From assembly GCA_041650515.1 (NCBI GenBank), contig JBAZLA010000002.1, forward strand, positions 103,659 to 167,658: a DNA stretch of 64,000 nt, read 5' to 3'. The notes under the pieces were generated by a model. That model had not been told where the DNA came from. It made no database searches and saw nothing but the letters and a program-made list of their open reading frames with translations. Made by a program: the position numbers and the translations under genes. Shown piece after piece: positions 3,831-17,021 of the stretch. The DNA is from Patescibacteria group bacterium. GTDB lineage: Bacteria; Patescibacteriota; Patescibacteriia; JACRDY01. The first letter of the stretch is position 1, and each line of letters begins with the position of its first letter.

Positions 3831-5057
3831 ATGGGCGAGGCCGCTCTAAAACTCGATCCCGAAGAAGATAAAGATGCTCTAGCTAAACAATACCAACGCG
3901 ATCTCAATAAAGAGCGTGGCGGTAAAGTTTTGAATATCCAAGTCAAAATAACTAAACGCTCGACCGACCAAAATACTCATAATACAGAAGGATATCAAGA
4001 AGAAGAAGAAAATGCTGATTCAATGCCTGATAATGTCACTGATTTAGCAGACTGGCGAGGCCGAAAACAACAACCAGCCAACGCGCCTCAACAACCAGCT
4101 GAATCATCCGATAATCAGTCCCCCCAGTCGGAAAAGCCAAACCCAGAATCACCCCAGGATCAACCTTCTCCAGGCGATCAATCTTCCCCGGAAAAGCCAA
4201 ACCCAGAATCAAAACCAGAACCCTCAGAAGAGCCGGAGCAAGAATCTCCTCAAAATCAACCGCCTCCAGGCAGTCAACCTGCTCCAGAAGAGCCAAACTC
4301 AAAACCAGAATCAGACAAAGAGAACAAAGAAGAGAAGCAAAAACCACCAGCAGAAGAAAGTGAACAAGTGACTAGTGCCGAGGAAGAAAAAGAAAAAGCT
4401 AGACAAGTAAGTACTGACCAAAAAAAATCTAGATCAAAGATCAAAGAAAAAGCCAGCCAAATAGCTCAAGAAGCTGGTAAGGTACTAAGGGCTATAACCG
4501 GTGAAGCCCTGCGCCAATCTTGGTTAAATCTTATTGACTCAATCGGTTTGACGCTACTCTATATTTGGTTTCACCATTTTATGTATTATTGTGGTGGCCC
4601 GTTCAAATGGGTGTTCATGCAGCCAGGCCAAGAATGGTTCGCTCAGCTTAAACAAGAATTGGGCTTAGGCGCCGCTGGCGCTGGCGCTGGCGCCACCACC
4701 GCTGGCAGCCAACCCAAAGTGGAAACAGCCACCAAAACCACCACGGAAACTAGCGGTAAAAGCAACGGCCAAAGTGGCGACCAGGGGGCTGAAGGTGGTG
4801 ATGAGAACGAAGATGCTGGTGACGGCGAAGAAGGCTCGGGTGAAAGTGGCGTTAGTGACGTAGCGGCCAAAGCTTTAGAATACACCGAAGTCGGCGCGGC
4901 CTGTTGTGTGGCCGTAATTATCGCGGGGCTATTGGCAATAATTGTTGTTTTTATTTATTACCTAGCTAACCCAGCAGCGGCCATATTAGATGCTATTAAT
5001 TTTAGTTTTTCAATAATCTCTGGTGGCGGTACTGCTGGCGCCAGTGGCAGTTACTAA
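3831..5057 (+). CDS. Pro/Glu/Ser/Gln-rich low-complexity protein with C-terminal hydrophobic segments
   Basis: Long ORF; repeated EKPNPES-like units, acidic disordered region, C-terminal TM-like stretches (AACCVAVIIAGLLAIIVVFIYY); start uncertain. Confidence 0.5.
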   Translation: MGEAALKLDPEEDKDALAKQYQRDLNKERGGKVLNIQVKITKRSTDQNTHNTEGYQEEEENADSMPDNVTDLADWRGRKQQPANAPQQPAESSDNQSPQSEKPNPESPQDQPSPGDQSSPEKPNPESKPEPSEEPEQESPQNQPPPGSQPAPEEPNSKPESDKENKEEKQKPPAEESEQVTSAEEEKEKARQVSTDQKKSRSKIKEKASQIAQEAGKVLRAITGEALRQSWLNLIDSIGLTLLYIWFHHFMYYCGGPFKWVFMQPGQEWFAQLKQELGLGAAGAGAGATTAGSQPKVETATKTTTETSGKSNGQSGDQGAEGGDENEDAGDGEEGSGESGVSDVAAKALEYTEVGAACCVAVIIAGLLAIIVVFIYYLANPAAAILDAINFSFSIISGGGTAGASGSY

Positions 5058-7451: not shown

Positions 7452-8447
7452 ATGCTATCTAGAAATAAAAAGAAAAAATACACCGCTATTATCCTTGTTA
7501 TTTTTATTGGCTTATTTCTAGCCGCTAACCTTGTTTTAGCAACAGACGAAACTCCGCCCAAATGGACTAAGGACGGCTGTGACCAGGCTGGCGGCTGGTG
7601 GTTTGAAAGTAACTGTTGGGCTAATAACCCCACCATCAACCTGGCTGTACCTTTTGGTGGTCTAAAACCAAATACAACTATTGGCATCGCCCAATATATT
7701 GGTGCAATCTACCGTTTTGGCATCAGCGCGGCCAGTGTCTTGGCGATTGTGATGATTATTATCGGCGGGTTTATCTGGCTAACTTCAGCTGGTAATCCCA
7801 CGCGCGTCACCCAAGCTAAAGGCTACATCGGCGGCGCTCTAGTAGGTCTGGTACTAGCCCTCAGCAGTTATTCCATTCTCAGAACTATTAACCCAGCCCT
7901 AACTGAATTTAGGCCATTACACATTCTCTATGTCGGCGAAGCACCATTGGCGATTGCCACCTGCTGTGAAAAAGACGGCCAAATGAATATTATTTATGAG
8001 GCAAACCAAGAATGCCCCGAGGGTCAAAAAAAAGTCACTTGCCCGTGCAAAGAATTAGCCGCTAACGAATGCCAAGCTGGCATGGTAAAATCAACTAATT
8101 CTGATAAAATTAAAACTGGCTGTTACTCCACTGGCACTTGGATGAATATCGGCGGTGTTTATACTGCTGGCGGACTCCGAACTTGCGCCGAGATAGAATA
8201 CGGTGAAGATTGTTCCAACTTTGGCGGATTATTTGGCGGCCAGGCCTGCCGTAACTACGGCAAAACTTTTACTCACAAAGGTGGCACGGGCATCGTGCCG
8301 GACTATCCTGATCTCTTTAAAAATATCTGCACTTCTGATCCTTGCCAGATCGGCCCCTGTAAGTTTGTACAAACATCCAAAGATAAGGATGGCGTTCTTC
8401 AAAAACTAAACTGGTGTATTGGCGCCAATGAACAACCGCCAGAATAG
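7452..8447 (+). CDS. Paralog 2 of the hairpin family; Cys-rich C-terminal domain
   Basis: Start 3 nt after paralog 1 stop; near-identical N-domain motif GGWWFESNCWANNPTINL and conserved hairpin block IAQYIGAIYRFGISAASVLAIVMIIIGGFIWLTSAGNPTRVTQAKGYIGGALVGL...NPALTEFRPL; divergent Cys-rich C-terminus. Confidence 0.7.
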   Translation: MLSRNKKKKYTAIILVIFIGLFLAANLVLATDETPPKWTKDGCDQAGGWWFESNCWANNPTINLAVPFGGLKPNTTIGIAQYIGAIYRFGISAASVLAIVMIIIGGFIWLTSAGNPTRVTQAKGYIGGALVGLVLALSSYSILRTINPALTEFRPLHILYVGEAPLAIATCCEKDGQMNIIYEANQECPEGQKKVTCPCKELAANECQAGMVKSTNSDKIKTGCYSTGTWMNIGGVYTAGGLRTCAEIEYGEDCSNFGGLFGGQACRNYGKTFTHKGGTGIVPDYPDLFKNICTSDPCQIGPCKFVQTSKDKDGVLQKLNWCIGANEQPPE

Positions 8448-8476
8448 TCACCGGTAGCTACCAACTTAAAATAAAT

Positions 8477-9688
8477 ATGTTTATCAAAAAACAAAAAATA
8501 AAACTAAGCCTAGTCACTTTTATCGCTCTGGCTAGTATTTTTGTTTATTTAGCGCCAGCTCTAGCTCAAAGCGGCGAGAACTGTTGTGTTTGTACTGATT
8601 TTGGTGGTAAAGACGTAAAATACGCTCCGGGCGTACCTGATGCTAACGGTAAATGCGACCAACATATCACCTACTCTACTGAGTGCTACGGTGAGGGCTG
8701 CGCCACTACCCCGGATAAAGTTTGCTCAGTCAAAGGTGGCAGCTGCAAAAGCTGGCAAGCGGCCATTGATAAAGTCTCGGGTGAAGAAGCAGCCAAAAAA
8801 GAACTATTACCAGCGACTCCCCCAGTTTTGCAAGTTAATATCCCCGGCCTCACTTTTACCGGCGAAATCAAAGCCACCATGGAAGAAATGGGTCGACGTT
8901 ATTATAATATTCCCTGGCTAGCTGAATATATCGGCGCGGTTTACCGTTTTGGTGTTAGCGTGGCTAGCGTCCTAGCAATCGTTATGATAATTATTGGTGG
9001 CTTTATCTGGATGACCTCGGCTGGTAACCAGGCCCGGATCACCCAAGCTAAGGGTTATATTAGCGGCGCGCTGATTGGCCTCTGTATTGCTTTGGGTAGC
9101 TACGGCGTTTTAAAAGTGGTTAACCCGGCCTTGGTCAATCTCCGGCCACTTAAGATACTGATGATTGAGTTTGAAGACCTAACTGGCGTCTCCACCAATG
9201 ATGATACGGCAGCTGCTAACCTTAGCTTTTCTCCTTCTACGCCGACCGGCGATACTCAACTCCTAAAGTTAAATAATTATAAGGGTCGACCAATTATATT
9301 AGATAAATCAATCGCCAACACAGTTCAACAGATTTTACAACAATTGATTGATGGCGGTTTTCAGGTAAAAGATGCCTCTAGCCATCGCCCCAATCAAGCT
9401 GGTTTTTCTTGGCATAAGTCCGGACTAGCTATTGATATTAATCCAGCTGAAAATCCATGCCCATGTTGCTATACTGGCACAGACTATAAACAATGCTCCT
9501 CTGATAAGTGGAAACCGGGAGTGGGTGGTGCCGTGACTAAAGAAGTAGTGGATGCCTTTAAAGCGCAAGGTTTCTGCTGGGGGGGAGATTGGTGTCATTT
9601 TAAGGATTACATGCATTTTTCGAAACCATCAAATAGCGCCAGCAAAGAGTGCGGAAACGGCGGAAATGGTTGTCCTTATCAGTGGTAA
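8477..9688 (+). CDS. Paralog 3 of the hairpin family with C-terminal peptidase M15 (VanY/phage L-Ala-D-Glu peptidase-like) peptidoglycan hydrolase domain
   Basis: Signal peptide, CCVC Cys-rich N-domain, conserved hairpin block (EYIGAVYRFGVSVASVLAIVMIIIGGFIWMTSAGNQARITQAKGYISGAL), then SSHRPNQAGFSWHKSGLAIDIN ... GFCWGGDWCHFKDYMHF matching Zn-binding S-x-H...D and WGGxW...DxxHF motifs of M15 peptidases. Confidence 0.75.
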   Translation: MFIKKQKIKLSLVTFIALASIFVYLAPALAQSGENCCVCTDFGGKDVKYAPGVPDANGKCDQHITYSTECYGEGCATTPDKVCSVKGGSCKSWQAAIDKVSGEEAAKKELLPATPPVLQVNIPGLTFTGEIKATMEEMGRRYYNIPWLAEYIGAVYRFGVSVASVLAIVMIIIGGFIWMTSAGNQARITQAKGYISGALIGLCIALGSYGVLKVVNPALVNLRPLKILMIEFEDLTGVSTNDDTAAANLSFSPSTPTGDTQLLKLNNYKGRPIILDKSIANTVQQILQQLIDGGFQVKDASSHRPNQAGFSWHKSGLAIDINPAENPCPCCYTGTDYKQCSSDKWKPGVGGAVTKEVVDAFKAQGFCWGGDWCHFKDYMHFSKPSNSASKECGNGGNGCPYQW

Positions 9689-10994: not shown

Positions 10995-11588
10995 ATGACT
11001 AACAAAATTCTCCAAACTTCTTTTTATAACCGACCAACACGTCAAGTTGCCCAGGATCTCCTGGGTAAAATTATTATCCGTCAAATCGGCCGCAAAAAAT
11101 ATTACGGCCTTATTACCGAAACTGAAGCTTATTGCGGGCCTCAGGACCAGGCCTCCCACGCTAGCAAAGGCCGCACCCCACGCACCGAGGTAATGTTTGG
11201 CCCAGCCGGCCACACCTATATCTATCTGATTTACGGTCTGTATCATTGTTTCAATATTGTCACCGAAAAAAAAGACTACCCAGCCGCGGTCCTGATCCGT
11301 GGCGCCCTCCCCTTACCAAAGGAATGGTTGGGTGGGGTTACTCTGCCCCTTTCCAAGAGGGAGATGGCCGAAGGCCAGAGGGGGTTAGCTAGTGGCCCAG
11401 GCAAACTCTGCCGTTATTTTAAAATTGATAAAACACTAAATAACCTCGATATTACTAAACCCAATAAACTTTGGCTGGTCGACAGCGGGCTAAAACCCCA
11501 AAGAATCATTCGCCGGCCTCGGGTCGGCGTTGATTACGCTGGTAAATACAAAGACAAAAAATGGCGGTTTATTACCCGATTTTCTTGA
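10995..11588 (+). CDS. mpg: DNA-3-methyladenine glycosylase (Mpg/AAG family)
   Basis: ATG overlaps TAA of upstream gene (taaATG); motifs GLITETEAYCGP, MFGPAGHTYIYLIYG, AVLIRGA, GPGKLC typical of Mpg family. Confidence 0.85.
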   Translation: MTNKILQTSFYNRPTRQVAQDLLGKIIIRQIGRKKYYGLITETEAYCGPQDQASHASKGRTPRTEVMFGPAGHTYIYLIYGLYHCFNIVTEKKDYPAAVLIRGALPLPKEWLGGVTLPLSKREMAEGQRGLASGPGKLCRYFKIDKTLNNLDITKPNKLWLVDSGLKPQRIIRRPRVGVDYAGKYKDKKWRFITRFS

Positions 11589-12168
11589 TACTATTTCTAT
11601 CTTCATCCCAATTTAAAGGATTATTGATAATATATTCGCTGATTTTTTGGTATTCTATTTGATTACGAATAATGTGTTCGTAATAATTTCGTTGCCATAA
11701 TCGTTGATCAAACGGCGACCAATTATTTTGTTTAACGTTTTTAATATATTCGTTGGTGGACATGGTTTTGAACCATTGCACCACCCGGGGTATTAATTGT
11801 TGGGAACGACGTAGGGGCAGACCCGGCGGTATTGGCAGACCTCTGTGTCTGCCCTGTTGGTTCGGGCAGACACAGAGGTCTGCCCCTACGTCGTCGATAA
11901 TTTCCACAATTCCATGAATATGATTTGGCATAACCACAAACACACCCAATCGAATGGTCAAAAATTTGTTCGGTAGTTTAGACCACCATTTTTGTGCCAT
12001 CCGACCCGCCGGATTTAAAATCATTCCCCCGTTTTCCACCCGACCGAATAAATAAACCATATTTTGGCTACAGATGGTAATGAAATATTGCCCCATTCCC
12101 GAATAATCATAATCGGGCAAGCGGATAGAACGACGGTGATGGTAATCGGGGTTATACATAGATAACAA
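11572..12168 (-). mobile_element. REP-associated tyrosine transposase (RAYT / IS200-like Y1 HuH transposase) gene with intragenic REP-like insertion
   Basis: HuH motif MPNHIHGIVEI and catalytic Tyr motif EYIINNP; about 30 extra residues (VGADLCVCPNQQGRHRGLPIPPGLPLRRS) between the two motifs are encoded by a GC-rich compound palindrome. Confidence 0.75.
11806..11894. repeat. GC-rich REP-like compound palindrome (BIME-like) inside the RAYT ORF
   Basis: Outer 18-bp perfect inverted arms acgacgtaggggcagacc / ggtctgcccctacgtcgt; inner units ggcagacctctgtgtctgccc and gggcagacacagaggtctgcccc are reverse complements of each other; GTAG/CTAC tetranucleotides flank the hairpins as in REP sequences. 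Confidence 0.8.
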
Positions 12169-12221
12169 AAGATAAGGCCTATCCTGACTCTATCATGGTG
12201 GACATTAAAGAAATCTAAAAT

Positions 12222-12245
12222 AAAAAAAGGGACGACGATCGTCCC
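12222..12245 (-). terminator. Rho-independent terminator candidate downstream of GC-rich island gene
   Basis: On minus strand GGGACGA-TCG-TCGTCCC (7-bp GC stem) followed by TTTTTTTATTTTAG; additional GC hairpins at 12275-12288 and 12300-12315. Confidence 0.5.
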
Positions 12246-12315
12246 CGACTAAGCTCGGACTAACCCACAAGGGTGGCTGGTCCCAGCCCAGTTAATTGTG
12301 CTGCTTGTAGGCAGC

Positions 12316-12681
12316 TTATTTTTTGGCTTTGGGCTTCTGGCGCGACTTGGGCCGACACCGGCTATTCAGCCAGTCGTCGAACGATCCGACGCTGGCAAAA
12401 TCCGCCTCGTTCGGCTTCTTGCCGTTGACGGCCATCAGATGACGCGCGGCCACCTGCATCACCCCGGTGCCTGACGGATGCCGGAAACGGGCTACCACAC
12501 CCGCTCCCTGCGAGTCGTGACCAAGGCCAATAATCTCCAGACGCTGCCCCAGGGCCGGCGCCAGATGGGCGATAGAGCCAATCGTGGCTCCGCCGCCAGC
12601 GCACGGGCTATTCCGGTTGATCTTGGCCACCACACCAGGATCAACCGATTCGAAAGTCACAGTAATGAATTCTCGACGCAT
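12316..12681 (-). CDS. Small basic protein of unknown function, GC-rich island gene B (paralog of 13047..13448)
   Basis: ORF track gives 12316..12765 but AGGAGG lies 8 nt upstream of ATG at 12681 (MRREFITVTF...); C-terminal basic tail KSRQKPKAKK; region is about 60% GC versus about 40% elsewhere. Confidence 0.55.
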   Translation of the reverse strand: MRREFITVTFESVDPGVVAKINRNSPCAGGGATIGSIAHLAPALGQRLEIIGLGHDSQGAGVVARFRHPSGTGVMQVAARHLMAVNGKKPNEADFASVGSFDDWLNSRCRPKSRQKPKAKK

Positions 12682-13046
12682 AGGGGCCCCTCCTACCAAA
12701 GATTGAGGCAATTGTTTAAAAAGAACCCACACCCCAGCCCGCCTCATTAGGCTAAGGTGATTCACTGATTATTTATTTAATTACCATATTTTCAGTCTTC
12801 AGTCAATAACAATATTCTAAATAAAACAAAATGGGGCAGACGCGTAGTCTTACCCCGGCGCAAGATCGTGGGCAGGCGGGCCTTTGAATCAGCGCAAATT
12901 TCCTCTTTTGGGTTTCCTTCCCCCCTTGTGTGACCGCGCCGCATTGCGGTCGAAGAATTCAACCCCCTTGAGGAAGACGATATCGCTTGGTCAGAAGAGA
13001 ACACAAGGTAGCTCATCTGGCGAAGCGACAAATGCAAAAGGACGTC

Positions 13047-13448
13047 TTACGACCGGCGACGAACTTTGCCGCTGCCGCCGGACTGCTTCTTCTTGCCGCT
13101 GCCGCCGTTGCAGTGGAGCAGAAGAAATTCGCCGAGAAACGTCTCGGCATCCGTCAGATGCTGCTCGGTCGGTTTGATCTTATCGGCGCTCATGACATGC
13201 TGCGCCATGACCTGCAGATCACCCGGATTGAGCCGGCCTTGCAGAGCCTCAGGCAGGGCGAATCGGATGATCGGTCTTCGCAACTTGGGGTGATCAGCGA
13301 TTTCCACCACCGTAAGCTCATGACCGATCAACTGACCGAGTCGTTCGTGGTGACGAGCCTTACTCGGTCGGCCATTCAACACGCATTCACTGTCGCCATT
13401 GAGACAAACAGTGAGCCCCTTCGGAACCTCAACAAACTGAAACTCCAT
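13047..13448 (-). CDS. Small basic protein of unknown function, GC-rich island gene A
   Basis: GAGGT 7 nt upstream of ATG; C-terminal Gly/Lys/Arg tail; segment LQVMAQHVMSADKIKPTEQHLTDAETF aligns with VMQVAARHLMAVNGKKPNEADFASVGSF of gene B; preferred over overlapping plus-strand ORF 12987..13451, which lacks an RBS. Confidence 0.55.
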   Translation of the reverse strand: MEFQFVEVPKGLTVCLNGDSECVLNGRPSKARHHERLGQLIGHELTVVEIADHPKLRRPIIRFALPEALQGRLNPGDLQVMAQHVMSADKIKPTEQHLTDAETFLGEFLLLHCNGGSGKKKQSGGSGKVRRRS

Positions 13449-13569
13449 TAGCGTTACCTCTTCTTTCAGGGCATAGGAGAATGAGCTTTTAGTTGGTCTT
13501 CCGCCTTAGACCTCTGTATAGCCCTAAACGCCAAGGATTCGCCCCGTTGATCCTGACGTAATTATTCGC

Positions 13570-13599
13570 ATTATAAACAAAAAGAATAGTTCTTGTCAA
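13570..13599 (-). promoter_or_regulatory. Perfect consensus sigma70 promoter TTGACA-N18-TATAAT reading into the GC-rich island genes
   Basis: Minus strand: TTGACA (13599..13594), 18-nt spacer, TATAAT (13575..13570), about 115 nt upstream of gene A start. Confidence 0.6.
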
Positions 13600-13613
13600 C
13601 TATCTTCTTAATT

Positions 13614-13715
13614 GTCATTGCGAGGCCCGACGTAAAGTCGGGCCGAAGCAATCTCATGATATATCCACCAGATTGCTTCGTCGCTCCGCCGGCTGGCGGA
13701 GCTCCTCGCAATGAC
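13614..13715. repeat. 102-bp nested compound palindrome (closing stem plus three internal hairpins, all perfect Watson-Crick)
   Basis: Outer gtcattgcgag/ctcgcaatgac (11 bp); hairpin 1 gcccgac-gtaaa-gtcgggc; hairpin 2 cgaagcaatc-17 nt-gattgcttcg; hairpin 3 gctccgcc-ggct-ggcggagc; linkers 0-2 nt. Confidence 0.8.
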
Positions 13716-13757
13716 GTGGTCAATAAATTTGCTTTATTGTTTTCTTGCTTTATTGAC

Positions 13758-15857
13758 CTATTCCCAATGCACTCGCTCGGCCATTTCCCTTACCTTATCT
13801 TTGAGTAAATAATATTTACTTAATTCTGGATCACTGTGGATAACTTTAGCTGCCCACTCACGCGCTTGCTTAATGGCTGCTAAATCAAACAAACTAGCTA
13901 GCCGTAAATTAGGCAAACCACTCTGCATGGTGCCTAGGGTCTCACCTGGCCCGCGAAATTCTAAATCTTTCTCGGCTAGTGCAAAACCATCCTGGCTAGC
14001 CACTAACGCCGCTAGACGCCTAGCGGTTATCTCACTAGCCGATTCGGTAAATAAAAAACAATAGGATTGGTGCTCTGATCGACCCACCCGACCGCGGAAT
14101 TGGTGCAACTGCGCTAAACCAAAACGCTCAGCCCCTTCGATCATCATCACCGTGGCATTAGGCACATCCATGCCCACTTCCACTACGGCCGTGGCGACCA
14201 AAACTTTAATTTTATTAACCAAAAAATCTTGTCGTACTCGCTCTTTCTCCGCCGATTTTAACCGACCATGCAAAATGCCAATCGCATGTTCTGGAAAAAT
14301 TTCTTTGTCTAGTTTAATAAATTCTTCTTCCGCCGACTTAACGCCTAATTTGTCTGACGGATCAATCAATGGACAGATCACAAAAGCCTGTCGACCAGCT
14401 TCAATCTGCTGCCTAATAAATTGATAAGCCGGCCGATACTTATTAGATTCAATAATTTTGGTGATAATTTTTTTACGACCCAGCGGCAATTCATCAATAA
14501 TTGATAAGTCTAAATCGCCATAGATAGTCAAAGCTAACGACCGCGGGATTGGGGTGGCGGTCATTGATAAAAAATGAGGCAATAAACCGCTATTACCCGC
14601 TCGTTCTTTAAGCGCCTGGCGCTGTTTAACACCAAAACGATGTTGTTCGTCAACGATCGCCAGAGCTAAGTTTTTAAATTCAATCTTTTCTTGGATCAAA
14701 GCGTGAGTGCCAATAATAACGTCAATTTTACCGGCTTTAAGCATCTTAATCACCTCTGAGTGCTTTTTATTTTCTGCTTCACCTAGCGAGCCAAAAAACA
14801 ACTTAACGCTACCCCGAGTTAATAAACCAATGTTAATATCCGCTCCGGACAAGAGTTTACTCACAGTTTGAAAATGCTGATTGGCTAGTATCTCGGTTGG
14901 GCAGAGCAAGGCGGCCTGATATTTGTTACTAACAACATTAAGCATCGCTAAAGTAGCCACCACGGTTTTACCCGAGCCAACATCACCTTCGAGCAGCCGA
15001 TTCATTGGCTGATTTTTTTGTAGATCCTTCAGAATCTCCCAAGCCGCTTTACGTTGAGCCGTCGTCAGTTTAAATGGTAAACTAGCGACAAAATTTTTAA
15101 TCACTCCCTCTTTAAATTCTAAGCTACTGGAGTGGCTTTTTTCTAGTTCGCGACGCGCGAGTTGGTTTTGCAGCTGAATAATAAAAAATTCGTCAAACTT
15201 AAGCCGACGCCGCGCCTGCTGCAGCCTGGCTTGGCTATCGGGAAAATGGATCTGCCTGATAGCCGCTATCAGGCCGGGAAATTTTAAAGCTAAAATAATC
15301 TCCGCCGGCAAATAATCCTTAATACTTTTTAATTGGGTCAAAACGATCTTAATCAGATAACGAATTTGTTTAGAAGTTATCCCCTTGGTCAAGGGATAAA
15401 CCGGTACCAGCCGAGCGGTATGCGTCGGCCCACTAGCGGCTTTAACCTTGGTAATCTTTTCATAGCTTGGCGAATGAAATAAAATTCCCTTATCAAAATC
15501 AACCTTACCAGCAATAAAAACCTCATCGTTCGGCTGTAAAATTTTACTCACAAAGGGTTGGCCGAACCAAATAACTTTTACTGAACCAGTAATATCAGTG
15601 ATAATCGCTTCGGTAACTATCCGTCGCGCTCGCCAAGAACGGAAATTTTTAATCAATTCTACTCTGCCACGAACGGTCGCCGTAACCCCCGGCGCCAAAT
15701 CCCGAATATCAACTACCTGACTAAAATCATCATAGCGAAACGGATAATAAAAAATGAGATCGGCTATCGTCTCAATTTCTAATTTTTTTAATTTTGGCGC
15801 TAATCTAGCGGCAATTTTATTAAGATAACTAACCGGCGTTTTTAAATTAATCAACAT
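13758..15857 (-). CDS. recG: ATP-dependent DNA helicase RecG
   Basis: 699 aa; N-terminal wedge/OB region, helicase motif I DVGSGKTVVA, DEQHRFGV (motif II), C-terminal helicase domain motifs; canonical RecG architecture. Confidence 0.9.
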   Translation of the reverse strand: MLINLKTPVSYLNKIAARLAPKLKKLEIETIADLIFYYPFRYDDFSQVVDIRDLAPGVTATVRGRVELIKNFRSWRARRIVTEAIITDITGSVKVIWFGQPFVSKILQPNDEVFIAGKVDFDKGILFHSPSYEKITKVKAASGPTHTARLVPVYPLTKGITSKQIRYLIKIVLTQLKSIKDYLPAEIILALKFPGLIAAIRQIHFPDSQARLQQARRRLKFDEFFIIQLQNQLARRELEKSHSSSLEFKEGVIKNFVASLPFKLTTAQRKAAWEILKDLQKNQPMNRLLEGDVGSGKTVVATLAMLNVVSNKYQAALLCPTEILANQHFQTVSKLLSGADINIGLLTRGSVKLFFGSLGEAENKKHSEVIKMLKAGKIDVIIGTHALIQEKIEFKNLALAIVDEQHRFGVKQRQALKERAGNSGLLPHFLSMTATPIPRSLALTIYGDLDLSIIDELPLGRKKIITKIIESNKYRPAYQFIRQQIEAGRQAFVICPLIDPSDKLGVKSAEEEFIKLDKEIFPEHAIGILHGRLKSAEKERVRQDFLVNKIKVLVATAVVEVGMDVPNATVMMIEGAERFGLAQLHQFRGRVGRSEHQSYCFLFTESASEITARRLAALVASQDGFALAEKDLEFRGPGETLGTMQSGLPNLRLASLFDLAAIKQAREWAAKVIHSDPELSKYYLLKDKVREMAERVHWE

Positions 15858-15865
15858 ATCTTATC

Positions 15866-15937
15866 CGCCCTCAGTAGGAATCGAACCTACATTACGAGAT
15901 CCGCAATCTCGCGTCCTATCCATTGAACGATGGGGGC
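15866..15937 (-). tRNA. tRNA-Arg (anticodon GCG as parsed)
   Basis: Minus-strand sequence GCCCCCATCGTTCAATGGATAGGACGCGAGATTGCGGATCTCGTAATGTAGGTTCGATTCCTACTGAGGGCG folds as cloverleaf: U8, A14, GG18-19, anticodon stem CGAGA/TCTCG, loop TTGCGGA (U33, G37), T-loop TTCGATT; 3' end abuts recG start. Confidence 0.7.
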
Positions 15938-16148
15938 TTAAACGAACTGGAAACTAAATTAGACTTCTGAAAACCAACTCCGATTTTATCCATTGTCACC
16001 CTCCGGGTGATCCGCCTTTGGCGGAAACGATGGGGGCTTAAACGAACTGGAAACTAAATTAGACTTCTGAAAACCAACTCCGATTTTATCCATTGTCACC
16101 CTCCGGGTGATCCGCCTTTGGCGGAAACGATGGGGGCTTAAACGAACT
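15926..16148. repeat. Tandem direct repeat, 100-bp unit x about 2.2, each copy containing the first 12 nt of tRNA-Arg plus 88 nt of its 5' flank
   Basis: Unit aacgatgggggcttaaacgaactggaaactaaattagacttctgaaaaccaactccgattttatccattgtcaccctccgggtgatccgcctttggcgga repeated identically at 15926 and 16026; third partial copy 16126-16148; unit contains hairpins tcaccc-tcc-gggtga and ccgcc-ttt-ggcgg. Confidence 0.85.
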
Positions 16149-16262
16149 AAACAAAATAAAGCAAAAAAATAGTCTCAGCTTCATTAGCTTTCCCGCCTAG
16201 ACTCGCGTCCGGCGAGGCTGGCCCAAGTATAGTAAAAAAGATAAATAAAATCAAGATTAAAG

Positions 16263-16751
16263 CTAAAGCTTAAGCAGTCGACTCATAGCATCAGAAAATG
16301 GCTCATTTTCTTTAGTCAGGTCCTCATTTAGATACTTAAGTAGAATCTGTCTAACCTTAACTGGGTTACGATCCTGAAGCGGAATCTGAACCCGAGGTAA
16401 TAATATACTGCCAAAACTAAAATACAAATTTTTAACAACCGGCGGCTCATAGATCAACCAAAAGTTTTGGATCTCCTTGTAATTATAAAATTTCTCACCA
16501 ACCATAATACCATCTTCAAATATTGAAAATTTAATTTCCTTAGCTTCATTTGAGCTACGTAAAAATAAAATGATAGCCGTAATCAGGACAATCAGCGCAA
16601 ACAAAAAATTAGCCACCAAAACTGAGTATAATAACAGTAAAGCCATAATAATAATAGCGCCAATATACCATCCCCGGCTCCTTTCATATTGCACAAACTC
16701 GGAAAAACTCCAAGTCATTAATTCCTGACCATAATCATTCTCTGTTGCCAT
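16263..16751 (-). CDS. Small membrane protein, unknown function
   Basis: 162-aa ORF with two adjacent TM helices (YIGAIIIMALLLLYSVLVANFLFALIVLITAIILFL); no recognisable motif. Confidence 0.5.
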   Translation of the reverse strand: MATENDYGQELMTWSFSEFVQYERSRGWYIGAIIIMALLLLYSVLVANFLFALIVLITAIILFLRSSNEAKEIKFSIFEDGIMVGEKFYNYKEIQNFWLIYEPPVVKNLYFSFGSILLPRVQIPLQDRNPVKVRQILLKYLNEDLTKENEPFSDAMSRLLKL

Positions 16752-16755
16752 ATAA

Positions 16756-16784
16756 TTGACAGTTATTGTTAAAAATATTATATT
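16756..16784 (+). promoter_or_regulatory. Near-consensus sigma70 promoter for the tRNA-Ser pair
   Basis: TTGACA (16756-16761), 17-nt spacer, TATATT (16779-16784); tRNA-Ser starts at 16805. Confidence 0.6.
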
Positions 16785-16804
16785 AAAGCAGTCTTTTACC
16801 CAAT

Positions 16805-16897
16805 GGAAGGATGGCCGAGTGGCTGAAGGCAGCGGTTTGCTAAACCGTTATAGGGGTTTTATAGCTCCTATCGAGGGTTCGAATCCCTCTCCTTCCG
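16805..16897 (+). tRNA. tRNA-Ser (anticodon GCT)
   Basis: GGAAGGATGGCCGAGTGG... long variable arm, anticodon loop TTGCTAA, T-arm GGTTCGAATCC; 93 nt. Confidence 0.85.
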
Positions 16898-16931
16898 AAT
16901 TGATTTAAATAAGCCTGGTCCGCACCAAGGC

Positions 16932-17021
16932 GGAGGGATGGCTGAGTGGTTGAAGGCGACGGTCTTGAAAACCGTTGTTCACTTTAGAAGTGAATCGTGG
17001 GTTCGAATCCCACTCCCTCCG
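16932..17021 (+). tRNA. tRNA-Ser (anticodon TGA)
   Basis: GGAGGGATGGCTGAGTGG... long variable arm, anticodon loop CTTGAAA, T-arm GGTTCGAATCC; 90 nt. Confidence 0.85.

Follow-up and report, generated by a model that had tools for sequence, protein, structure and literature searches.

The 102-bp palindrome at positions 13614-13715 of a 64,000-nucleotide stretch of DNA from a Patescibacteria group bacterium (contig JBAZLA010000002.1, positions 103,659 to 167,658; this whole stretch is called the window below) is very likely a head-to-head (HH) dimer of a CGTC-tagged repetitive extragenic palindrome (REP), or Ssn-related motif (SRM), and a gene-less relative of the SRM-ssn-SRM module. We consider four points established: the anatomy of the element, its family membership by sequence and layout, the link of the family to ssn genes, and the lack of a link to the Y1 protein family that has a member nearby. 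What is new is confined to the subfamily, namely the sequence of its conserved boxes, its bipartite stem, the frequent three- and four-way junctions, a wide distribution that includes Patescibacteria, and its escape from the published SRM pattern.

The palindrome was confirmed to be real and highly non-random. A first-pass annotation of the window had described a perfectly nested palindrome with four stems of Watson-Crick pairs, and this was borne out: the element consists of an outer stem that encloses three hairpins, pairing is 100% Watson-Crick in all four stems, and the sequence from 13614 to 13715 reads GTCATTGCGAGG-CCCGACGTAAAGTCGGGC-CGAAGCAATCT-catgatatatccacc-AGATTGCTTCG-tc-GCTCCGCCggctGGCGGAGC-tc-CCTCGCAATGAC. 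A repeat finder returned perfect inverted repeats of 12 bp for the outer stem (A-A'; 13614-13625 / 13704-13715), 8 bp for hairpin 1 (13624-13631 / 13637-13644), 11 bp for hairpin 2 (B-B'; 13644-13654 / 13670-13680) and 8 bp for hairpin 3 (13683-13690 / 13695-13702). The annotated lengths of 8 bp and 7 bp for the distal hairpins stand, the latter because G13624-G13625 are shared with the outer stem in the nested fold (8 bp if they are counted), and those of 11 bp for the closing stem and 10 bp for the middle one are each one pair too short.

Both strands of the element adopted the same four-way junction. In the fully single-stranded form this junction pairs A with A' (12 bp) and B with B' (11 bp) and contains the two distal hairpins, and with DNA parameters it was the lowest-energy fold of the whole element (-39.8 and -41.4 kcal/mol for the two strands). 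As RNA, the minimum free energy was -65.0 kcal/mol for the + strand and -69.4 kcal/mol for the - strand, compared to averages of -30 to -32 kcal/mol for shuffled sequences (z = -9.25 and -10.11, respectively), and none of 200 shuffles folded as well. The observations argue against a chimeric assembly junction at the element, which had been named as a possible refutation, because the Logan assembly of run SRR8542065 was 100% identical over 8162 bp that include the element; this run is possibly the source of the window assembly.

Each half of the element is built like a tagged hairpin: after a (C/T)GTC tag come a basal stem with AT at its start and a distal hairpin, and the stem is followed immediately by a C. 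In the left arm (13613-13653, + strand), the tag T-GTC (13613-13616) is followed by the basal stem ATTGC/GCAAT (13617-13621 / 13648-13652), a GA-rich internal loop (GA / GAA), and the distal 8-bp hairpin (13624-13631 / 13637-13644) with the loop GTAAA, and C13653 lies directly 3' of the stem. The right arm (13671-13716, - strand) has the tag C-GTC (13716-13713), the same basal stem (ATTGC at 13712-13708, GCAAT at 13676-13672), the internal loop GAGGA / GACGAA, a distal 8-bp hairpin (13702-13695 / 13690-13683) with the loop AGCC, and a 3' C that is the complement of G13671. Measured from GTC to the 3' C the arms are 40 nt (left) and 45 nt (right) long, and they are separated by a non-conserved spacer of 17 nt (13654-13670, TCATGATATATCCACCA). 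Folded alone with DNA parameters, the left arm (-13.9 kcal/mol) and the right arm (-14.7 kcal/mol) each took exactly the tagged-hairpin layout.

The anatomy of the two arms is that of the CGTC-tagged REPs. These repeats carry a terminal CGTC (often TGTC; CCTC also occurs), the first two pairs of their stem are A-T, and a short unpaired tail follows on the 3' side. In most cases two copies at a distance of 1-100 bp form an HH dimer whose tags lie at the outer ends, and dRS3 of Neisseria and RPE-4 and RPE-6 of Rickettsia belong to the class (Di Nocera et al., BMC Genomics 2013, PMC3733652). Because each half of the element has this anatomy, with the tags outside, we take each half to be one tagged hairpin and the element to be a probable HH dimer. 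The likeness covers the tag (CGTC, with TGTC in many copies), the AT at the start of the stem, the short 3' tail, the HH arrangement, and the absence of a flanking RAYT or other transposase gene. The difference is in the stem and tail: published CGTC-tagged REPs have a continuous stem of 8-9 bp with a loop of 4-5 nt and a CCA tail, whereas the window arms have a bipartite stem (a 5-bp base, an internal loop, and an 8-bp distal stem with loops of 5 and 4 nt) and a CTC or CTG tail. In addition, the present subfamily occurs in Patescibacteria and Chloroflexota, two phyla that PMC3733652 does not name as carriers of CGTC repeats.

The evolutionarily conserved unit is the single tagged hairpin of each arm, not the four-way junction. 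Among the lineages of repeats that flank ssn genes (described below), the basal stem covaries: it is ATTGC/GCAAT here, ATTCT/AGAAT in Planktothrix, ATCCC/GGGAT in Spirosoma, ATTCCC/GGGAAT in Neisseria, and ATCGC/GCGAT in some copies from the candidate phyla radiation. The tag and the 3' C stay constant while the stem covaries, which argues that the hairpin within each arm is the selected unit. The four-way junction is a by-product of two properties of the dimer: the arms are complementary to each other (A-A', B-B'), and each contains a long distal hairpin.

The conserved words of the element, GTCATTGCGAG (box A) and GAAGCAATC (box B), recur in at least 120 genome stretches from at least 15 phyla. 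We scanned one genome per species with the pattern AGATTGCTTCG-N(0-30)-CCTCGCAATGAC; the matches are referred to as L001-L120. The listed matches include Chloroflexota, Bacteroidota, several lineages of Patescibacteria, Planctomycetota, Omnitrophota and Ignavibacteriota, and further Alpha-, Gamma- and Delta-type Proteobacteria (Pseudomonadota), Zixibacteria, Elusimicrobiota, Armatimonadota, Bacillota, and others. The first-pass annotation had proposed a genome-wide search for the individual stems. Within the 64-kb window the element is a single copy and its stem words recur at chance level only; it is in other genomes that relatives were found.

Members of the family share a common layout. The order is box A (GTCATTGCGAG) - x - box B (GAAGCAATC) - loop - box B' - x' - box A', over 70-150 nt, and the box order of the right arm of the window copy is the same as in 215 arms from L001-L120. 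In the listed copies the spacer or loop between the arms is 7-80 nt and not conserved between genomes. The connectors x and x' are 2-40 nt, genome-specific, and often independent self-complementary hairpins, such as CCCGTTAGGGC, GCCCTTCGGGC and CCCCGATGTGACATCGGGG; in copies from Bacteroidota they are reduced to GTAC or GAAC, which leaves a plain 25-bp stem. Copies within one genome are alike over their whole length (L015, L055, L093 and L109), between genomes the boxes alone are shared, and the 23-nt words are near-invariant across many phyla. We determined DNA minimum-energy folds for 75 non-redundant full elements: 34 were plain hairpins, 27 three-way junctions, and 14 four-way junctions. 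The four-way shape of the window copy is therefore one common variant of the repeat family.

We noted that in short-arm members among L001-L120 the connector after box A is CGAAGC, CGTAGC, CGCAGC or CGGAGC. Together with the preceding G these read GCGNAGC, with N alone varying, which we take to be the pattern of a very stable DNA mini-hairpin with a GNA triloop; the d(GCGNAGC) mini-hairpins are reportedly the work of Hirao and colleagues. The short-arm members match this pattern, whereas the window copy has 8-bp distal hairpins with loops of 4-5 nt.

The family is linked to genes for a small GIY-YIG protein. When the open reading frames (ORFs) around the 120 listed copies were clustered, there was no recurrent neighbor other than generic families and, at a few loci, a small GIY-YIG protein. 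At two of these loci (L018 and L044) box A - x - box B is followed, after about 10 nt, by the ATG of a GIY-YIG gene of about 95 codons, and some 5 nt after its stop codon comes B' - x' - A', so that the gene occupies the position of the 17-nt spacer of the window copy. A gene of this kind (referred to as ssn) lies between the arms in L018, L044, L202, L212 and L243, and beside a complete dimer rather than inside it in L086, L222, L230 and L239. The protein family has at least 7999 homologues that are about 70% identical to one another, and PF01541 is the only Pfam match. Some database proteins with N- or C-terminal extensions carry peptides encoded by the arms.

Loci picked by the protein alone had the repeats. 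Tagged hairpin repeats were present within about 150 bp of the ssn homologue in 12 of 12 such loci, comprising L202, L212, L222 and L230 (four proteins), L237, L239, L242 and L243, L236 from IMG/VR, and L244, L245 and L246 from a plasmid collection. As a control we used 80 metagenomic loci (430 kb) that were picked only for a homologue of the Y1 protein; here box words were almost absent and adjoined the gene in one locus (Fisher's exact test, p = 4e-14).

The proteins flanked by window-type arms belong to the Ssn family, because their consensus is 46% identical, over 97% of the query (E 3e-19), to a 94-aa ORF of N. gonorrhoeae (L244), and around this ORF there are seven canonical copies of the Neisseria repeat NTS, CGTCATTCCCGCG..GCGGGAATC. 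By this homology, and by a single GIY-YIG domain of about 95 aa, they resemble SsnA, a 94-aa GIY-YIG protein of the group cd10448 (Chenal et al., Nat Commun 2025, PMC11893778). SsnA binds the Neisseria repeat CGTCATTCCCGCGMAVGCGGGAATCYRG only as single-stranded DNA (ssDNA), with no binding to double-stranded DNA, RNA or the reverse strand, and its cut falls a few nucleotides upstream of this sequence (PMC11893778). The C after the palindrome is the most critical determinant of binding and the GTC before the palindrome the most important one for cutting; SRMs flank 71% of ssnA homologues; and in Neisseria the NTS/SsnA pair lowers transformation by NTS-bearing DNA (PMC11893778). Small prokaryotic GIY-YIG proteins had been classed as Slx1-like, with no mention of repeats (Dunin-Horkawicz 2006). 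A general literature search on GIY-YIG proteins and inverted repeats returned nothing relevant, and one by DNA and RNA words of the element returned unrelated primers and siRNAs alone.

The Ssn-type family looks chromosomal rather than phage-borne. A scan of 2.9 million viral contigs in IMG/VR gave a single confirmed hit (L236), which lies among four box-A/box-B arms and another three box-A' words. We also observed a tandem array of arm units of about 55 nt (ATGACTCTGCGAGGAGGGCGCCTTTCCCGACGAAGCAGTCTC...) upstream of an ssn homologue (L222, 1130-1490; L225, 40-290). The basal stem covaries in this array (ACTGC-type/GCAGT), and the copy number differs between samples.

The arms of the window copy agree with the SRM description in several respects. 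Both arms have an HGTC tag followed by W-Y in the form of AT (TGTC-AT at 13613-13618; CGTC-AT at 13716-13711, - strand), both are hairpins of 20-50 nt with a C immediately 3', and repeats of the family flank ssn homologues, as described above. A wide phylogenetic spread is a further likeness to the NTS-SsnA system. The arms differ in that a GA-rich internal loop interrupts the stem, between a 5-bp base and a variable distal hairpin of up to about 20 nt, that arms of the subfamily are 25-45 nt long, and that their box is ATTGCGAG..GAAGCAAT rather than ATTCCCGCG..CGCGGGAAT. Moreover, cleavage is known for SsnA, whereas here it would be expected by analogy.

Several findings weigh against the assignment to the SRM and Ssn group. 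The published pattern HGTCWYN(0-2)YYVSBRHN(0-5)WNVSBRGN(0-2)RNCYNB had no match in the window and none in the 215 subfamily arms from L001-L120, whereas the same regular expression recovered seven of the seven NTS repeats in L244. The arms escape it because their stem is interrupted and longer; the degenerate pattern was drawn from 29 genomes for use in searches and does not define function. No Ssn homologue is encoded in the 64-kb window, which is part of a 243.5-kb contig, by hmmsearch (best E 1.6) or jackhmmer, and a single copy of the element is present there. The flanked proteins are placed in cd10448 provisionally, by homology to the Neisseria ORF. Compensation within arms of the subfamily was modest (26 with the consensus, 3 fully compensated, 5 with G.T, and 5 mismatched), in a count that used a restrictive pattern; the covariation between lineages is better evidence. 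Lastly, the four-way fold involves the GTC tags in pairing and is favored by about 12 kcal/mol over two separate arm hairpins; it might mask the tag sites when the whole element is single-stranded.

We believe that the element most likely acts at the level of ssDNA, with each arm as a putative binding and nicking site for an Ssn nuclease. If the locus became single-stranded, during replication or repair or as imported or transferred ssDNA, each arm would fold on its own strand into the 5-bp ATTGC/GCAAT base, the GA-rich internal loop, and the variable distal stem-loop. The cognate Ssn nuclease would bind this hairpin, with the C after the stem being critical, and would nick the single strand at a position a few nucleotides 5' of its GTC tag. 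As the arms are inverted, each strand would have one sense site, the two sites lying at opposite outer ends. We infer this mechanism by homology to the Neisseria system, and the same applies to cleavage of the window copy and to any effects on recombination or transformation. Since there is no ssn gene in the 64 kb, the window copy would be either an orphan or relic, which arrived with or next to the insertion of 2.17 kb described below, or a copy served in trans.

A DNA-level element rather than a conserved RNA, as the first-pass annotation had preferred, is the best reading: SsnA binds ssDNA only (PMC11893778), and the element has no match in Rfam. At the gathering threshold the only Rfam matches in the window were three tRNA genes (15866-17021), and at E <= 10 nothing in 12100-13800 overlapped the element. 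An alternative is that the element acts as RNA in the 3' untranslated region of recG, blocking read-through into the promoter on its other side or protecting the 3' end of the mRNA in the manner of REPs in E. coli. Its position on the transcribed strand, 42 nt past the recG stop codon, its RNA fold of -69.4 kcal/mol, and UUCG- or GNRA-like loops in some distal hairpins of the family would fit such a role. However, no U-tract follows and a terminator scan does not call the element, which is a symmetric dimer of inverted arms; a simple RNA hairpin has no use for the conserved GTC tag and 3' C, and the family tracks a nuclease without RNA binding (PMC11893778). We regard this explanation as unlikely; an effect on recG transcripts would be at most a side effect of position. 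The suggestion that the element is a recombination site comparable to integron attC, or else the product of chance or assembly, has practically no probability and is ruled out by the sequence. The element is palindromic and its length is within the range of attC sites, but it has no R''/R' core sites (RYYYAAC / GTTRRRY), its ends being GTCATTG and CAATGAC; its pairing is perfect, with no extrahelical bases, and there is no integrase among the neighboring ORFs. Against an artefact stand the shuffles, the identical sequence in the SRR8542065 assembly (a possibly shared run), and the at least 120 related stretches. Likewise, we found no support for the other proposals of a recombination site or a roadblock.

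The remaining alternatives concern mobility. One is that the element is an end or target of the Y1 enzyme (IS200/IS605- or RAYT-type) encoded at 11572-12168 (- strand), the partner proposed in the first-pass annotation. This 198-aa protein is RAYT-like (NF047646, 49.5 bits against a cut-off of 80; IS200, 16 bits), the inserted segment that holds its gene has the element at its far edge, and in one Y1 locus (L126) a box word lies 27 nt from the gene. The link was nevertheless rejected in both directions. A tblastn search with the Y1 protein and the neighboring ORF133 and ORF149 against the 845 kb around the 120 listed copies gave no match, and 79 of the 80 loci picked for Y1 homologues (at least 7984 of which exist) had no box words adjoining the gene. 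The Y1 family has a different palindrome of its own, with GTAG tags, and the tags of the element are CGTC and TGTC; CGTC repeats are reported without RAYT neighbors, unlike GTAG REPs (PMC3733652). The IS200/IS605 comparison also failed: left and right ends (LE/RE) of these elements are ssDNA hairpins recognized by a small nuclease, as we propose for the arms, but they are distinct imperfect hairpins in subterminal position on either side of tnpA (with or without tnpB), whereas the window copy has two near-identical arms, 17 nt apart, with no gene between them and no second end or hairpin beyond the Y1 gene. The likeness to REPIN-RAYT systems is that two inverted tagged hairpins form one long hairpin, action is on ssDNA, and non-autonomous repeats presumably depend in trans on one single-copy nuclease gene, which has the repeat on its own flanks; the difference is the tag, the GIY-YIG rather than HuH/Y1 partner, and the separate GTAG palindrome of the RAYT-like gene in the window. 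We conclude that an association of the element with the Y1 enzyme is very improbable. A second view is that the element is a non-autonomous derivative, resembling a MITE (a miniature transposable element with inverted repeats), of a transposon similar to an insertion sequence (IS), with the arms as terminal inverted repeats and Ssn as the transposase. This extends the interpretation as an HH dimer of SRM-like hairpins and does not exclude it. It is consistent with modules in which a gene takes the place of the 17-nt spacer, with the likeness of copies throughout their length within genomes and in the boxes alone between genomes, with 23-nt words identical across many phyla, with the location of the element in DNA that is absent from the nearest relative, and with the IS-like NTS-ssnA-NTS layout noted by the authors of PMC11893778. 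In addition, the module in L018 (5022-5419) is flanked by a perfect direct duplication of 112 bp of the 5' end of pheT. On the other hand, no short target-site duplication was seen at the window copy or other modules, strand transfer is not known for a single-domain nuclease of about 95 aa, and in L086, L222, L230 and L239 the gene is beside a complete dimer and not inside it; the near-absence of the ssn family from viral contigs is neutral with respect to mobility. On balance a MITE-like origin is possible but doubtful. More speculative, and a proposal that we would not expect to hold, is that ATTGCGAG/GAAGCAATC repeats and ssn genes together are a pan-bacterial, horizontally spreading IS-like transposon family, with elements of the 13614-13715 type as its MITEs. 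If so, the 23-nt words over at least 15 phyla, the arms-gene-arms modules and the 112-bp host duplication in L018 would be its footprints, and a single-strand nuclease of about 95 aa with a GIY-YIG domain as 'transposase' would be a transposition chemistry new to bacteria.

In L018 (4750-5560), the upstream copy of the pheT duplication is a truncated gene start and the downstream copy is intact. Either the insertion mechanism or repair after the module had inserted into an essential gene could have left this duplication.

These results turn a palindrome that looked like a Holliday junction into an ordinary, explainable object and remove a false link to the nearby Y1 transposase. They also indicate that a very widespread subfamily of Ssn-associated hairpins escapes the published SRM search pattern, that it extends to Patescibacteria and many other phyla, and that its long distal hairpins often give three- and four-way junctions. 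Many spurious metagenome ORFs of the 'VIARSEATKQS / DCFVASLLAMT' type, whose peptides are common, come from this repeat subfamily. The more interesting question is whether SRM-ssn-SRM modules and gene-less dimers transpose, and the loci described here are material for testing the mobility of the module. They also supply enzyme/site pairs for the toolbox of ssDNA nucleases proposed by Chenal et al. (PMC11893778).

The palindrome of the Y1 family is located within the Y1 gene itself. It spans 89 bp of the window (11806-11894) as a nested, GTAG-tagged inverted repeat, ACGAC-GTAGGGGCAGACC ... GGTCTGCCCCTAC-GTCGT, with a perfect 18-bp outer pair of arms and inner arms of 26 nt that are 92% complementary. 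It is in frame and encodes a stretch of the Y1 protein, 'VGADLxVCP', that is conserved in the family. Allowing up to two mismatches, GTAGGGGCAGACC was present in 71 of the 80 Y1-homologue loci versus 17 of the 120 listed element loci. In the Y1 loci examined (L122-L201) the GTAG motif is usually an inverted pair within the gene and is sometimes in the flanks too (L124). It is unusual for the coding sequence of a presumed transposase to contain the enzyme's own REP-like site.

The element is located between recG and a consensus promoter, at distances close to those annotated (about 40 and 15 nt). The stop codon of recG (13758-13760, - strand; RecG is 699 aa with all RecG domains) is 42 nt from the element. 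On the other side, at 14 nt, a sigma-70-type promoter (13570-13599, - strand; TTGACA at 13599-13594, an 18-nt spacer, and TATAAT ending at 13570; 12 of 12 consensus positions) points away from the element into ORF133. A consensus promoter is not a regular companion of family members elsewhere. Between the element and recG is an AT-rich hairpin (13718-13758, - strand) that begins at the recG stop codon, with a perfect 10-bp stem (GGTCAATAAA / TTTATTGACC) and a 21-nt loop in which the 11-nt sequence TTGCTTTATTG is directly and exactly repeated (13729 and 13745). On the recG strand the hairpin is not followed by a T-tract.

The element is at the edge of a segment of 2.17 kb (11589-13757, between the stop codons of MPG and recG) that is extra DNA, because in the nearest available relative (L247, which has the same flanking genes and a RecG with 65% identity) recG converges on the MPG glycosylase gene with 1 nt between them (8082-8084). 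Coincidence of the element with an island boundary had been put forward as a check; the element lies 42 nt from one edge of the segment. The segment contains the RAYT-like gene, whose 3' end overlaps the MPG gene, two orphan ORFs, the promoter, the element, and the AT-rich hairpin. The GC content is 0.537 for the central 1.4 kb (12169-13570), which the consensus promoter drives, 0.588 for the element, 0.409 for the Y1 gene, and 0.429 for the window. Searched against 1.84 billion representatives, ORF133 matched itself and, weakly, a repeat in a 1622-aa protein (P0362, seven stretches). The two island ORFs had no family matches, and NCBIfam and PADLOC scans gave the RAYT-like hit alone. We found no convincing terminal repeats or target duplication bounding the segment, and the element may have come with the segment or separately.

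A more distant relative (L248) has an unrelated small island at the same place downstream of recG (8089-9631). It contains a GC-rich palindrome (CGAATT...GAAATTCG), promoter-like sequences (TTGACG/TATGAT), a 127-aa ORF, and a 232-aa Y1_Tnp-like gene, and it has no sequence similarity to the window island. The same relative carries a different small GIY-YIG gene (4713-4955), without arms. The 3' flank of recG seems to be a recurrent landing site.

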